A stretch of DNA of 12,896 nucleotides from a virus (IMGVR_UViG_2700989170_000001:1-12896); one strand, 5' to 3'; shown: positions 1,780 through 8,177, numbered from the stretch's first letter. Numbers and translations are program-made. The notes: generated by a model not told the origin, from the sequence alone.

Positions 1780-2501
1780 TAAGCAGCCTCCCCTGTTACT
1801 TTCAGCATTCCGTTATCGAGCAGCTTTCTGGTCAGCCACTGTTGACCACGCCCGGTGATTTTTGTGGTGAACGATATCTGTATTCCGTGATTTGTGTTGA
1901 CCGCTGTTTCTTTCACTGTGAAATAGCCGCGATCCATATATTCCTGCATTGGCACATTGCGCCGGGAACCTGAAGCAATAAGGATTTTGTGATCACGCAT
2001 CCACGCAAACAGTTTGTTTTGACCAATACCAACAACCTTTGCAAAGTTTCCAATCAAAATTCCGCTGGCCTCGCCAACGCGATCGGCAAACTCAACTTTA
2101 GGTGCGGCAATTGCGAGCTGGTTTTCCAGTTGCATTTTCTGCTCAGCAAGATCAGCAGCAAGGCGCAACGCTTCTGGTAGCGTTTTTGGGATATTAACCG
2201 CAGTTTCTTCAAGCTCTCGCCAACGGTCAACAAGACGAGCGGTGAATTCCGGCGACAACTGGGCTACAACGACAATACTGTCTCGCTTTCCTTGTTCGCC
2301 TTCGAAGACGTAATGCTCGTACTGAACACTGAACCCTAAGTTATTGATTCTTTCGGAAACCTCAATTTGAGGAAGCCGGATAACACCATTTTTAGCCAGC
2401 GTTTCGATGGTACGTTTCACATTGTCATGACGCTTACCCACCAACTCAGCGATTTCAATGCTTGTCATTTTGATGGCATTGCCATTTATTAACTCATTCA
2501 T
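1779..2501 (-). CDS. Phage antirepressor / regulatory protein (Rha-like N-terminus, KilA-C/ANT-like C-terminus, 240 aa)
   Basis: The N-terminus (MTSIEIAELVGKRHDNVKRTIETL) is Rha-family-like and the C-terminus (GNFAKVVGIGQNKLFAWMRDHKILIASGSRRNVPMQEYMDRGYF) is ANT/KilA-C-like. An SD GAGGAA lies 7 nt upstream. It is inserted between ninF and the YbcO-like gene. Confidence 0.7.
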   Translation of the reverse strand: MNELINGNAIKMTSIEIAELVGKRHDNVKRTIETLAKNGVIRLPQIEVSERINNLGFSVQYEHYVFEGEQGKRDSIVVVAQLSPEFTARLVDRWRELEETAVNIPKTLPEALRLAADLAEQKMQLENQLAIAAPKVEFADRVGEASGILIGNFAKVVGIGQNKLFAWMRDHKILIASGSRRNVPMQEYMDRGYFTVKETAVNTNHGIQISFTTKITGRGQQWLTRKLLDNGMLKVTGEAA

Positions 2502-2664
2502 CGTCTTCTTCCTCGTACATTGAGCTATTCGGATCGCTCATCAGTTCTGCGCAGCAATCGGAGCACACGTGAACTTCCAGCACATGCAGTTTCTGACCGC
2601 AGTTAGCGCACGTTAAAGCCCGCTCGACGCTTTCTTGTTCGTAACTTCGATTTGGGTCAATCAC
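2494..2664 (-). CDS. ninF: NinF-like small Cys-rich protein (56 aa from GTG 2664; alternative ATG start at 2688)
   Basis: The C-terminus SYEQESVERALTCANCGQKLHVLEVHVCSDCCAELMSDPNSS resembles lambda NinF as I recall it. The GTG at 2664 has an upstream GAGGA and overlaps the ninE stop (GTGA). The ORF track extends this frame to 2955, but that stretch overlaps ninD and ninE and is unlikely to be translated. Confidence 0.65.
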   Translation of the reverse strand: MIDPNRSYEQESVERALTCANCGQKLHVLEVHVCSDCCAELMSDPNSSMYEEEDDE

Positions 2665-2837
2665 CTTGTTTTCCTCATGCGGTTCCATTTGGCCTGTAAC
2701 AGCCCGTAGACATAATCGAATGTCTTTACCTGGCTTTCTGTGGGGATTGGTTTCTTGCGGGATTTGGTGCGTTTGGTAGGAGTAAAAATCAGGTTGTCTA
2801 ACGCTATTTGAGTAATACTTCGTCGCTGTCTCGCCAC
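2661..2837 (-). CDS. ninE: NinE-like protein (58 aa, GTG start)
   Basis: I translated this frame by hand: [58 protein letters not shown]. It resembles lambda NinE as I recall it (RRQRRSIT...KPIPKESDVKTFNY...RKTR). There is no in-frame ATG; the GTG at 2837 is preceded by AAGGAGGA. It is absent from the ORF track because it is short and starts with GTG. Confidence 0.55.
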
Positions 2838-2977
2838 ACGTCCTCCTTTTCCTGCGGTAGTGGTAAAACTCCTGTTGGTGTTCTTTCACACCGGAGACAC
2901 CATCGATTCCAGTAAGGTTGATTTGGTCGGAAGCGGTTATCTTCTTTGCATTCACCGCACCGATAACATCGCATCAT
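2804..2977 (-). CDS. ninD: NinD-like small zinc-finger protein (57 aa)
   Basis: The sequence [14 protein letters not shown]...WCLRCERTP has two CxxC pairs. Its ATG at 2977-2975 overlaps the ninB TGA (ATGA). Its size and position match lambda ninD; the family assignment is from memory. Confidence 0.5.
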
Positions 2978-3414
2978 GCAGCCCGATCTCCCCATCGCGC
3001 TTTCCATTCGAGAGCCAGTCGCGCTTCGTCTGACCACTTAACGCCACGCTCTGTACCGAATGCCTGTATAAGCTCTAATAGCTCCGCAAATTCGCTTACA
3101 CGCATCCTGCTGGTTGACTGGCCTATTACCACAAAGCCATTCCCGGCAAGGTTAGGAACAACGTCCTGCTGCTTTAATGCTGCGGTAAACACACACTTCC
3201 AGCTTTCTGCATCCAGCCAGCGACCATGCCATTCAACCTGACGCGAAACGTCACCAAGGCAAGCCCAAAGCTTCCGATTTTGGTCTAAGCTGCGGTTGCG
3301 CTCCTGAATGGTTACTACGATTGGTTTGGTTGGGTCTGGAAGAATTTGCTGTACCGCGTGAATAGCGTTTTGCTGATGTGCTGGGGATCGAATTTCAAAG
3401 GTTAGTTTTTTCAT
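2974..3414 (-). CDS. ninB: Recombination protein NinB (Orf family, 146 aa)
   Basis: The 146-aa product ([34 protein letters not shown]...) appears essentially identical to lambda NinB as I recall it. Confidence 0.9.
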
Positions 3415-3607
3415 GACTTCCCTCTCTAACAGATTTCAGGTTATTCCACTCCGTTACCGCACTGCGATAATTCGCGGCCGCCACAGCGGCGTGGTTAGCG
3501 CAGTAGATTTGGCACCCGTTCTCCATGTCGAATATTGTCGGTGATTTTCCGCATTTACATTTTTTGGCACGCGGTGCGTCTGAACACATTCCGTTAACGG
3601 TGTCCAT
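3395..3607 (-). CDS. Hypothetical Cys-rich small protein (70 aa) at the position of lambda ren
   Basis: The ORF has a strong RBS (GAGGGGGA 5 nt upstream) and several Cys residues (CSDAPRAKKCKCG...GCQIYCANH). It overlaps the ninB start by 20 nt and follows a terminator hairpin. I recognise no family. Confidence 0.45.
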   Translation of the reverse strand: MDTVNGMCSDAPRAKKCKCGKSPTIFDMENGCQIYCANHAAVAAANYRSAVTEWNNLKSVREGSHEKTNL

Positions 3608-3630
3608 CAGGATCCCCCTCGTTCTTAATC

Positions 3631-3662
3631 CAATAAAAAAGGGCTACTGTGTAAATAGCCCC
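3631..3662 (-). terminator. Intrinsic terminator downstream of the helicase gene (tR2-like position)
   Basis: Minus-strand stem GGGCUA/UAGCCC (plus 3641-3646 and 3656-3661) with a 9-nt loop, followed by UUUUUUAUU (plus 3631-3640). It lies between the helicase stop and the next ORF. Confidence 0.5.
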
Positions 3663-3691
3663 TGTTATTAGCTCAGTGATGTAGATGGTCA

Positions 3692-5128
3692 TCAGAATCC
3701 TCCTTTCTTCTTGGACTGCGGCTCCTCGCGTTCACGGCGGCGCATTTCAGCAGACTGTTGGTCTGTGTCATAAATAGCGCCATTTGCCTGAATGCAATAC
3801 ACCGTGCCGGTATTGCCATGACGATTGAGACGAAGGATTAGTTCGGTTTCACCAGGTGGAACACTGTCATCAAAAGCACCTTCACGATGGATCCCCACCC
3901 AATAATCGCAATCCTGTTCAATCTGCCCTGTATCTCGTGAGTCACTTGGTAATGGGCGTTTATTGGTTCGGCTTTCCAGTGCGCGGTTAAGCTGCGTCAG
4001 AAGCACAACAACGCAATCAAGCTCTTTGGCAAGGTTCTTCAGTCCTTTGGTGATCATGCCGTAAGCAAGGTCGTTGCGATCGGCCTTCTCAGCGGTCATT
4101 AGTGTCAGGTAATCGACCAGAATCATGCCAACACATCCTTTTTCTCGCTTGATTCGACGGCTTTCGCTGACGATTTGAGCCAGAGATAATCCCGGCGTGT
4201 CGTCGATGTAAAGCAGGTCGATTTCACTCAAACGATTAGCTGTTTCGATCGCCCTGTTGAAGTCACCATCGTAATCACCCTGATAGCCGTCATCAGCGTC
4301 ATTTGTCGCCGGAAGGTAAAAAATATTCGGGTTAACACCAGACTTCTGCCCTACCAGTTTTTCCAGTATCTGGTCTCCTGGCATTTCAAGGCTGAACATC
4401 AGAGCGGGCTTTTTCTCATGCACTGCGCAGTTGATTGCCATCTGGCTGTATAGCGTCGTTTTCCCCATCTTAGGGCGAGCGCCAATGACAAACAGAGAGC
4501 CTTTCACCAGACCTTTCGGTGACAGCATCCTGTCCAGCGATGGGATCCCTGTGCTCATTCCCCGTTGTTCGCCTGATGGGTCAAATCGCTTCTCAAGGTC
4601 GCTAACCCAGTCTTCCATGACCTCACCAAATGAGCGAAGTCCGCGACGCGATCCGGTTTTTGCATGGTCTGTCAGTTGCGTGAAAATCGCCTGAATAGCT
4701 TCGTACTTCTGCGTTGCAGTCATTCCGTTGCGGGAATAGAGCAATTCCGTCGCTTCAGTCATGCGGTTGATGGCGTAGCGTTCCATTGCGGTTTCACGAA
4801 CCTGCATTGCATAGGCAACGATGTTTGCTGCGCTTGGCGTGTTCTTTGCGATCTCAGCGATATAAGCAAAACCGCCAACAGACACCGTTAACGATTTGCG
4901 CTCCAGTTCATCGAAAAGCGTCAGGCCATCTACTGGCTTTTGCTCCCGGTGCATTCTGGTTATTTCTTCGAAAAGAATTTTGTGTGGTCGGCTGTAAAAT
5001 GAATCAGGCTTCAGCATCGCCAGAACTTTCTGGACGCGCTCACTGCTGTCATCATCCAGAAGCAATCCACCAATCACCGCCTGCTCTGCCTCGATGCTAT
5101 GGGGCGGCGCATAAAAATTATCGGTCAT
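3692..5128 (-). CDS. DnaB-family replicative helicase (P-loop; P22 gp12-like), about 478 aa
   Basis: The N-terminus has the DnaB-type motif PPHSIEAEQAVIGGLL; Walker A is GARPKMGKT; a Walker B-like ILVDYLTLM follows. The ATG at 5128 has SD GAGGGTG upstream; the ORF-track start at 5143 is a GTG. The start overlaps the stop of the O-like gene by 11 nt. Confidence 0.9.
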   Translation of the reverse strand: MTDNFYAPPHSIEAEQAVIGGLLLDDDSSERVQKVLAMLKPDSFYSRPHKILFEEITRMHREQKPVDGLTLFDELERKSLTVSVGGFAYIAEIAKNTPSAANIVAYAMQVRETAMERYAINRMTEATELLYSRNGMTATQKYEAIQAIFTQLTDHAKTGSRRGLRSFGEVMEDWVSDLEKRFDPSGEQRGMSTGIPSLDRMLSPKGLVKGSLFVIGARPKMGKTTLYSQMAINCAVHEKKPALMFSLEMPGDQILEKLVGQKSGVNPNIFYLPATNDADDGYQGDYDGDFNRAIETANRLSEIDLLYIDDTPGLSLAQIVSESRRIKREKGCVGMILVDYLTLMTAEKADRNDLAYGMITKGLKNLAKELDCVVVLLTQLNRALESRTNKRPLPSDSRDTGQIEQDCDYWVGIHREGAFDDSVPPGETELILRLNRHGNTGTVYCIQANGAIYDTDQQSAEMRRREREEPQSKKKGGF

Positions 5129-5879
5129 CGTGTTCACCCTCACGAACTTTCAGGTAGGTATTATCGTTAAGCAGGAAATCAAATCCCTTTTTGTGCCAGA
5201 CGGTTCCGCGTTGATGGTTTGGACGCTCTTCGAACATCCATCGGCAATTTTCGCCTACGTAGCTCAAATAATTTCTCCAGTCCTGCATCGTGAACCCATG
5301 CCCGTCAAGCTGGCGGGTTATCACTCCGGCTTTGCGCCAGAACGTTCGGATCTGGTTTTTACGCTTGTCATTCAGTGCGCGGATTCTTGGCGCTTCAGGA
5401 AGGATTTCGTGGTAAGCATCGACAACATCCTGACAGCTAACGGAAGGTTTTTTCTTGTCAGACTTTTTGTCTGCTGTGGCACTCTCTAATACGTCAGTAT
5501 TAGAGATATTATTTATATTATTGTTTATGGACAACCGTTGGACAACCGTTGGACAATTTTTTGCCTGAAAATCGTCATATTTAACGATTGTAAACAGGCT
5601 AAATTTCTTCCCCATCGAGCAAATATTAAGCATCCCTTTCGACTCAAAAGTCCGTAATAAGCTCCGAACTTTGTTGTCTGGAATGAATGTTTCTCTGACC
5701 AGCGACGGGCGTCCAGTTATCATCTGACCGCGATCAACAGTTATCGGACCGATATCCGTATTGACGACAGTAGATTCGTGATTAGCCTTGAGGATTAAGT
5801 GAAGCCAAAGATGTACTGCCTGAGAGTCCTTATAGAGCCTGCTGTCCATAAACTGGCGGTGTATAGAGACATACCCCAT
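5118..5879 (-). CDS. Replication initiation protein (O-like organiser, with internal iterons), about 253 aa
   Basis: The ORF sits immediately upstream of, and is coupled to, the helicase. It contains direct repeats and an AT-rich tract, like ori within lambda O. The favoured start is the ATG at 5879 (MGYVSIH...), which has AGGAGG 8 nt upstream; the ORF-track start at 5942 has no comparable RBS. Confidence 0.75.
   Translation of the reverse strand: MGYVSIHRQFMDSRLYKDSQAVHLWLHLILKANHESTVVNTDIGPITVDRGQMITGRPSLVRETFIPDNKVRSLLRTFESKGMLNICSMGKKFSLFTIVKYDDFQAKNCPTVVQRLSINNNINNISNTDVLESATADKKSDKKKPSVSCQDVVDAYHEILPEAPRIRALNDKRKNQIRTFWRKAGVITRQLDGHGFTMQDWRNYLSYVGENCRWMFEERPNHQRGTVWHKKGFDFLLNDNTYLKVREGEHDDR
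5528..5556. repeat. Iteron-like direct repeats (probable replication origin) inside the O-like gene
   Basis: GGACAACCGTT occurs twice in tandem, followed by a partial third copy GGACAA and then TTTTTT. The upstream flank (5498-5527) is AT-rich. This matches the lambda arrangement of iterons plus an AT-rich region within the initiator gene. Confidence 0.6.
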
Positions 5880-7749: not shown

Positions 7750-7868
7750 AAACAGATACCAAACGAGATGGGTTTGGCGGTGATGTGAATTGCAGCTGCA
7801 ACGACAGCAACCAGAAGATCAGCACCTGGCGCATCACCACCAAAGCCATTTCACATGAGGAAAATATC

Positions 7869-8177
7869 ATGACGGTAATCGTGTACGGGAAATCAACATT
7901 TGCAGGAAATGCCAAAACTCGCCGTCATGAGCGGCGCAGAAAGCTGGCTATCGAGCGTGATGCTATATGCAACATCATCGATTCGATCTTCGGCACAGAC
8001 AGTGAGGAACCTGTTCAGGAAGCCCCGAGAAAACGTTTAATCCTTTCTGAAAAAGCAATATCACTCGGCAACATTCGTAACCAAAATACCGACGAATGCA
8101 GTGGAAGTATTTGCCTGCCAAACGTAGCTCTTTACGCGGCAGGCTACCGGAAATCAAAACAACTGACAGCCAGGTAA
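7869..8177 (+). CDS. N: Antitermination protein N (P22 gp24-like, arginine-rich motif), 102 aa
   Basis: The N-terminus MTVIVYGKSTFAGNAKTRRHERRRKLAIER carries the arginine-rich RNA-binding motif and resembles P22 N as I recall it. The ATG at 7869 has GAGGA upstream. The ORF-track start at 7785 would overlap nutL. Confidence 0.8.
   Translation: MTVIVYGKSTFAGNAKTRRHERRRKLAIERDAICNIIDSIFGTDSEEPVQEAPRKRLILSEKAISLGNIRNQNTDECSGSICLPNVALYAAGYRKSKQLTAR

Follow-up and report, generated by a model that had tools for sequence, protein, structure and literature searches.

The gp60 gene of HK97-type lambdoid phages is a conserved cassette located between terminator tR2 and ninB

Here we describe a 70-amino-acid open reading frame (ORF) that lies between the replicative helicase gene and ninB in a viral DNA stretch of 12,896 nucleotides (IMGVR_UViG_2700989170_000001:1-12896), referred to below as the window. 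This ORF is not new but corresponds to gp60 of phage HK97, an already catalogued hypothetical gene whose family has no assigned function. Judged by its pattern of substitutions, gp60 truly encodes a protein and is under strong purifying selection. It is a dispensable mosaic cassette and comes first in the hypervariable slot that separates tR2 from ninB in the lambdoid pR operon. The main value of the analysis is a corrected map of this region, in which tR2 is located inside ninA, gp60 follows tR2, and the ren slot is empty.

The minus strand of the window carries a lambdoid rightward early operon encoding a CII-like activator, an O-like initiator, a DnaB-like helicase, NinB and NinF, followed by Roi/Ant-like and HNH/YbcO-like proteins, RusA and a Q-like antiterminator. 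A CI-type repressor, an N-like antiterminator, RecT and a Gam-like protein are encoded on the plus strand. The features around gp60 are as follows.

3692-5143, minus strand: DnaB-like replicative helicase gene in the position of lambda P (PHROG 19, E 4.1e-137)
3594-3692, minus strand: ninA micro-ORF encoding 32 amino acids, hydrophobic, MTIYITELITGAIYTVALFYWIKNEGDPDGHR (PHROG 5907, E 6.9e-18)
3632-3663, minus strand: predicted intrinsic terminator, positional homologue of tR2, with a 10-bp stem and a 5-nt loop at 3639-3663 and then a U-tract
3614-3620, minus strand: Shine-Dalgarno sequence of gp60, GAGGGGG, 6 nt ahead of the ATG at 3605-3607
3395-3607, minus strand: gp60-family gene encoding 70 amino acids, ATG start
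2974-3414, minus strand: ninB/orf recombination mediator gene (Pfam NinB, E 1.1e-54; PHROG 72, E 1.5e-58)

The gp60 start codon is preceded by a reasonable Shine-Dalgarno sequence, and the translated product has cysteines at positions 8, 17, 19, 32 and 36. Its stop codon (3395-3397) lies beyond the ninB ATG (3412-3414), giving an overlap of 20 nt, and at the other end the ninA stop codon lies 14 nt within the start region of gp60. A first-pass annotation of the window had described a strongly initiated, cysteine-rich ORF of 70 amino acids with a CxC...C...C pattern that overlaps the start of ninB, and each of these points agrees with the ORF, its translation and its start region; the view that a real gene lies between the helicase gene and ninB is further supported by the selection and family data below. 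Downstream of ninB, only the C-terminal part of the longest ORF (2494-2955, minus strand; 153 amino acids, GTG start) matches a known family, namely NinF at residues 115-139 and PHROG 672 at residues 97-153; the roughly 300 nt that separate the ninB stop codon from this part may represent a remnant or else contain a further small gene that has escaped annotation.

The 70-amino-acid protein aligns from end to end with PHROG 6308, a family listed under "unknown function" (E 3.7e-54; residues 1-70 on profile positions 1-70 of 70), and tblastn searches revealed 100% identity with HK97 Gp60 (NP_037742.1) and with the proteins of HK446, HK544 and mEp506; the ORF is therefore already catalogued. Identical copies are also present in Salmonella phage 29485 and in an Stx2c phage, and the identity is 98.6% in CUS-3, IME10, HF4s and PDP110P2. 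HK97 and the window have the order ninA-gp60-ninB in common and do not differ in the Gp60 protein at all, but their upstream helicase alleles are unlike each other, that of the window matching IME10 and mEp506. The family is tiny and narrowly distributed: gp60 was found in 15 of 50,697 phage records and in 146 of 5426 complete E. coli genomes (about 2.7%), its exact start junction was found in 57 IMG/VR contigs, and the family comprises 16 clusters among 5.8 billion proteins. An exhaustive HMMER profile search of 1.84 billion representatives returned 8 of them, one being new at 50% identity, and nothing beyond the family and this 50%-identical member. Among 185,579 species, each represented by one genome, there was no real gp60, the only hit being a spurious 15-residue match in a membrane protein from a Clostridia MAG.

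The first-pass annotation had recognized no family for the ORF, and scans against Pfam, NCBIfam and PADLOC with gp60, all family members and a natural NinA::gp60 fusion, as well as single-sequence and profile searches of the PDB, indeed gave no match. The profile and structure-based searches that it had proposed led to PHROG 6308 and to no characterized homologue, and a fold search with models of gp60 likewise found no characterized protein. Nothing on function was found in the literature on HK97 gp60, its accessions or its PHROG identifier. The RefSeq/PGAP annotation of complete E. coli genomes contains neither ninA nor gp60, and gp60 is therefore systematically missing from E. coli genomes annotated in this way. 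In E. coli KCJ3K291 (NZ_CP054407.1, 1949923-1950196), for instance, an annotation gap of 274 nt lies exactly over ninA and gp60.

Omission by PGAP, together with a protein that has no known relatives, would be in keeping with an ORF that is not translated and with DNA that is conserved merely as a spacer or as an RNA structure downstream of tR2. The substitution pattern points in the opposite direction. Five diverged gp60 homologues were recovered with their DNA and compared over a core of 56 codons. Between the window copy and four homologues that are 74-83% identical, there were about 34 synonymous differences, corresponding to essentially all synonymous sites, and only 7.5-9.5 differences at about 133 nonsynonymous sites; the comparison with the 50%-identical homologue P0017 gave 27.5 synonymous and 29.5 nonsynonymous differences, and dN/dS ranged from 0.06 to 0.33 among the diverged homologues themselves. 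Since synonymous change is saturated and replacements are few, gp60 is under strong purifying selection. The reading frame, whose lack of conservation the first-pass annotation had named as a reason to doubt the ORF, proved to be conserved and is intact in about 85 near-identical copies, with a single frameshift. All homologues compared, the 50%-identical member included, retain the residues C8, C17, C19, C32, C36 and H39 and the motif NYRSAVxEWN; a C32G substitution occurs in one natural copy. With third codon positions diverging while the protein sequence is conserved, an intact frame, a good Shine-Dalgarno sequence and no Rfam match, an untranslated ORF is hardly credible.

The segment between the helicase gene and gp60 is taken up by ninA, whose ATG overlaps the helicase stop codon (ATGA) and which is annotated as NinA or Gp56 in CUS-3, mEp506 and HK97. 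The terminator hairpin is embedded within this micro-ORF, 29 nt after the ninA ATG. A terminator scan of the minus strand identified the 10-pair stem at 3639-3663, followed by TTTTATTGG, and the corresponding 51-nt RNA stretch has a predicted folding energy of -17.5 kcal/mol (z -4.3), with none of 200 shuffled sequences folding as well. As terminator-like matches occurred once per 1.3 kb, which is the level expected by chance (shuffle mean, 1.2), support for the terminator comes from the fold z-score and from the positional homology to lambda tR2. This homology was apparent when the window and HK97 were aligned with mEp234 and phage 21 and lambda was read alongside: ATGACCATCTACAT(C/T)ACTGAGCTAATAACAGG is common at the ninA start, and GAGAGGGAAGTCATGAAAAAACTAACC at the ninB start is common to the window, HK97, mEp234, phage 21 and lambda. 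Between these common ends, lambda, phage 21 and mEp234 have only the hairpin GGCCTGCTGGTAATCGCAGGCC plus TTTTTATTTGG, whereas in the window and HK97 the stem is swapped for another perfect hairpin (GGGGCTAT...TAGCCC), which is followed by gp60 and then the common ninB junction. In the alignment, gp60 is an insertion between the tR2 hairpin and the common GAGAGGGAAGTCATGA ninB junction. A tR2-like terminator ahead of the ORF, as the first-pass annotation had put it, is thus upheld by the fold and by the alignment with lambda tR2; the same annotation had overlooked ninA, and the terminator is located inside this gene and not in an untranslated spacer.

On the basis of the alignment, the terminator of the window is homologous to lambda tR2 by position but has a stem of its own, and this variant is predicted to terminate transcription. 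Both terminators are located about 30 nt after the ninA ATG and directly before the ninB-proximal genes, both consist of a hairpin and a U-tract, and their flanks are homologous (ATGACCATCTACATCACTGAGCTAATAACAGG ... CTTTTT(T)ATT(T)GG). Stem and loop, in contrast, are entirely different, with the stem being GGCCTGC/GCAGGCC in lambda and GGGGCTAT/TAGCCC in the window, and NinA has 26 amino acids in lambda compared with 32 in the window. In PMC4824070, where the lambda NinA start site is cited, the distance of lambda tR2 from the NinA AUG is given as 30 bp and that from the NinA stop codon, farther downstream, as 16 bp, and tR2 function is described as almost completely repressed when the terminator is a few base pairs downstream of a translated gene. 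Over the first 11 codons of ninA in about 230 loci of either hairpin type, variation was mostly synonymous or conservative, involving the leucine codons CTA, CTT, CTG, TTA and TTG and exchanges between I and V and between T and I, with one stop codon in about 230 copies. The two unrelated stems both encode hydrophobic residues (GLLVIAGLFIW versus GAIYTVALFYW). The ninA micro-ORF looks translated, and the presence of a terminator within a translated ORF suggests that translation modulates read-through.

The corrected map also separates gp60 from ren. Lambda and phage 21 have the gene order P-ren-ninA(tR2)-ninB, and PMC3640518 gives P-ren-tR2; ren is therefore upstream of ninA and tR2, whereas the gp60 insertion is on the other side of tR2, between ninA and ninB. 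The ORF is hence not at the ren position, where the first-pass annotation had placed it, and in the window the ren slot is empty, since the helicase stop codon overlaps the ninA start codon. In mEpX2 and Stx phages this slot holds an 89-amino-acid protein of PHROG 2239. In the prophage of E. coli KCJ3K291, the ren slot is occupied by a Ren homologue (43% identity, E 3e-15), with HK97-type ninA, gp60 and ninB next in order, and Ren and gp60 are therefore independent of each other. Pfam and PHROG scans of gp60 returned PHROG 6308 only, with no cross-match to Ren. These findings bear on the suggestion made in the first-pass annotation that the ORF may occupy the ren slot as an exclusion or anti-exclusion gene and guard against Rex-like abortive infection. 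Like lambda ren, gp60 is a small, nonessential gene between the replication genes and ninB, and it is phage variable and close to the location of ren; the two genes are, however, on opposite sides of tR2, their sequences are unrelated, and both occur in one E. coli prophage. Moreover, exclusion of the Rex or Ren type would require expression from the repressed prophage, so that the location of gp60 behind tR2 and the lack of promoter-like sites on the coding strand (none between 2900 and 4200) count against it. We rejected gp60 as a Ren-type gene because of its position after the hairpin and its co-occurrence with a Ren homologue, and a role in protection against Rex-like exclusion is very unlikely.

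Because it has no promoter of its own and is located directly behind tR2, gp60 is expected to be a delayed-early gene whose product appears in lytic growth only; judging from this anatomy, it would be silent in the repressed prophage. The N-like antiterminator encoded at 7785-8177 in the window would carry RNA polymerase through tR2 and thus into gp60. Alternatively, ribosomes translating ninA might mask the hairpin, and since tR2 is repressed near a translated gene according to PMC4824070, ninA translation may raise read-through. The overlaps of 14 nt with ninA and 20 nt with ninB suggest that translation of gp60 is probably coupled to both its upstream and its downstream neighbor, and such coupling is typical of nin genes (PMC8022706). 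The only terminator-like site found is upstream of gp60, and the 3' end of the gene overlaps ninB. We also considered and rejected gp60 as a moron, that is, an autonomous prophage gene, as it has neither its own promoter upstream nor its own terminator downstream. On the plus strand, antisense within gp60, two overlapping sigma-70-like matches were noticed at 3509-3538 (TTGGCA, 16 or 18 nt, AATATT/TATTGT), the -10 element of which, by eye, is apparently not kept in the diverged homologues. An antisense RalA-like antitoxin RNA from this site was discarded, with 2 promoter-like sites versus 1.1 expected being at chance level.

The variation among lambdoid phages that the first-pass annotation had attributed to this region was readily seen, with the variable point being the interval between tR2 and ninB, and the comparison of the helicase-ninB interval with related phages that it had called for identified gp60 as an insertion at this point. 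Using IMG/VR contigs with either hairpin variant, we located the first downstream NinB-type gene in 215 loci and found that its distance from tR2 varied from <40 to >1000 nt. With the lambda-type hairpin, ninB followed directly in 57 loci and was 150 to >1000 nt away in 54; with the HK97-type hairpin, the distance was 151-300 nt in 66 loci, which contain gp60 alone, and longer in 30. Clustering of the ORFs in these intervals yielded at least 12 recurrent small-ORF families. gp60 itself is present in 79 HK97-type loci and 1 lambda-type locus, so that the HK97-type stem accounts for 79 of 80 gp60 loci in a sample that is biased towards gp60. A family of 92-106 amino acids with the motif W(Q/E)ASR(A/S)AIE is present in 65 loci and DUF7301 in 27, and several membrane proteins of 60-108 amino acids replace gp60 at the first position. 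A CPFC-containing protein of 55-62 amino acids and an 89-amino-acid protein with a double CxxC motif were also seen in the interval; examples of its families are provided by loci L083, L084, L104, L113, L021, L040 and others. At least 13 loci carry gp60 in a 67-amino-acid form, followed by two or three further cassettes and then a different ninB allele, and gp60 is absent altogether from mEp234 and phage 21.

The proximity of gp60 to ninB raises the possibility that its product is an accessory partner of the NinB/Orf recombination mediator, cotranslated with it and acting in recombination or replication restart. The 3' end of gp60 overlaps the ninB start, the predicted basic zinc-knuckle N terminus could bind nucleic acid, and the diverged homologues, ahead of which no terminator was found, are followed directly by a NinB-type gene, from PHROG family 72 or 319, in five of six contexts, an arrangement that fits a link to NinB as well as it fits a host target. 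Adjacency is expected anyway, however, because the hotspot abuts ninB, and most lambdoid phages with NinB have no gp60, as in the 57 lambda-type loci in which ninB comes directly after tR2. In the loci with two or three intervening cassettes, of which there are at least 13, gp60 and ninB are not neighbors; in locus L011 a true Lar-family gene (4198-4392; PF14354, PHROG 599) lies between the gp60 homologue and NinB, and in L018 there is no NinB-family gene within 1.5 kb downstream of gp60. L011 derives probably from an Enterobacter or Citrobacter prophage, judged by its Lar homologues. A function linked to NinB therefore seems improbable.

As for the protein itself, two AlphaFold runs agreed on a hairpin at residues 24-35 and a helix from about residue 37-40 to residue 63, both with low confidence (pLDDT 55-59). 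The layout would be that of a basic N terminus with a CxC knuckle (C17, C19), followed by the predicted beta-hairpin and by C36-x2-H39, which would open the long helix at the C terminus, with the invariant AVxEWN motif at its end. In arrangement, the invariant CxC ahead of the hairpin and the C36-x2-H39 pair with which the helix opens resemble a zinc knuckle or treble clef, and gp60 is probably a small zinc-stabilized module; given the low confidence of the models, the predicted zinc binding and the set of ligands are based on residue conservation.

This layout invites comparison with the Lar/RalR family (PF14354) of cysteine-containing phage and prophage proteins, and gp60 could be a very diverged zinc ribbon of this type that acts in alleviation of type I restriction or as a RalR-like toxin or DNase. 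Lar proteins are of similar size (about 60-70 amino acids) and of similar layout: the cysteine knuckle has a G after it, a beta-hairpin and another pair of ligands come next, and the C-terminal helix carries A[IV]xxWN; in addition, a filter-free gp60 HMM was colinear with Lar at 6.9 bits, aligning C17/C19/G20 with CPFCG, C36/H39 with CxxC and W54-N55 with WN, and in L011 the true Lar gene adjoins the gp60 homologue in the same slot. However, 17 of 4200 trials with shuffled Lar sequences also reached 6.9 bits, a search in the reverse direction scored 4.3 bits, which 143 of 4000 shuffles equalled, and in a test against a background of 9417 ORFs the Lar-like proteins ranked 160th or lower among 8088 background ORF products of lambdoid loci. 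PF14354 matched none of 8 gp60 family members even at an E value of 10, hhalign probabilities were 1.9% with a narrow and 5.3% with a broad Lar alignment, and BLASTP searches for a relationship to Lar returned nothing. The invariant Lar residues P-C-P-F-C, C..C and W..R have C-K-C-G, C36-x2-H39 and W-N-N/S-L as their counterparts in gp60, so that gp60 has neither CPFCG nor CxxC, the defining motifs, and lacks the R of WNxR, and the tandem arrangement with a real Lar gene argues for a distinct function of gp60. With all search scores within the range of shuffled or background sequences, we did not accept gp60 into the Lar/RalR family; a fold shared with Lar is unproven, and a Lar-like activity is doubtful, at roughly one chance in ten. 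Lambda Ral, a 66-amino-acid, cysteine-rich accessory early protein like gp60 but encoded in the pL operon, was also dismissed as a relative (hhalign probability, 0.6%).

Tiny zinc-knuckle accessory proteins occur in phage early regions, and by analogy with these we propose, with low confidence, that gp60 may bind a host or defense component, its role being counterdefense or host takeover. The account as a whole, namely that gp60 is a zinc-stabilized, N-dependent delayed-early accessory protein, exchanged as a cassette at the tR2-ninB hotspot, that binds a host or defense factor, has in our judgement an even chance of being correct; the role linked to NinB and the Lar-like role discussed above are its main rivals, and an enzyme or an essential replication or recombination factor is unlikely. 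In this regard, a preprint on OLD defense is of note, in which the OLD inhibitor of HK446 is gp27 and not gp60, and HK97, which carries gp60, is OLD sensitive.

The relationship between ninA and gp60 is itself variable and is set by the G5 run at 3614-3618 (minus strand), the two genes being separate with G5 or G6 and fused with G4. The G4 allele encodes a 98-amino-acid NinA::gp60 fusion, in which the hydrophobic NinA helix is joined to gp60, and was found in at least 24 contigs with different helicases and flanks, including loci L014-L019; it is absent among the IMG/VR contigs. In two loci with the GGGGGG allele, ninA ends exactly at the gp60 ATG. It is conceivable, although a long shot, that gp60 represents a new class of zinc-finger counterdefense or takeover effectors at the tR2-ninB hotspot, and that the G4/G5/G6 alleles switch it between a soluble form and a form anchored in the membrane by the NinA helix; these alleles may also be a product of drift. 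If the former were true, the tR2-ninB hotspot with its at least 12 small-protein families, which include many membrane proteins, would as a whole be an antidefense locus that has so far not been tapped.

In summary, the purifying selection on gp60 is unusually strong for a dispensable protein of 70 amino acids, and since PGAP does not annotate the gene, it will escape genome-based screens. With its two alternative stems, each contained in a micro-ORF that looks translated, tR2 is a naturally occurring terminator within coding sequence, and ribosomes passing through it can be expected to influence read-through. Many uncharacterized miniproteins are exchanged at the tR2-ninB interval, which is sharply bounded and, for this reason, a practical place to seek counterdefense or host-modulating genes in lambdoid phages.
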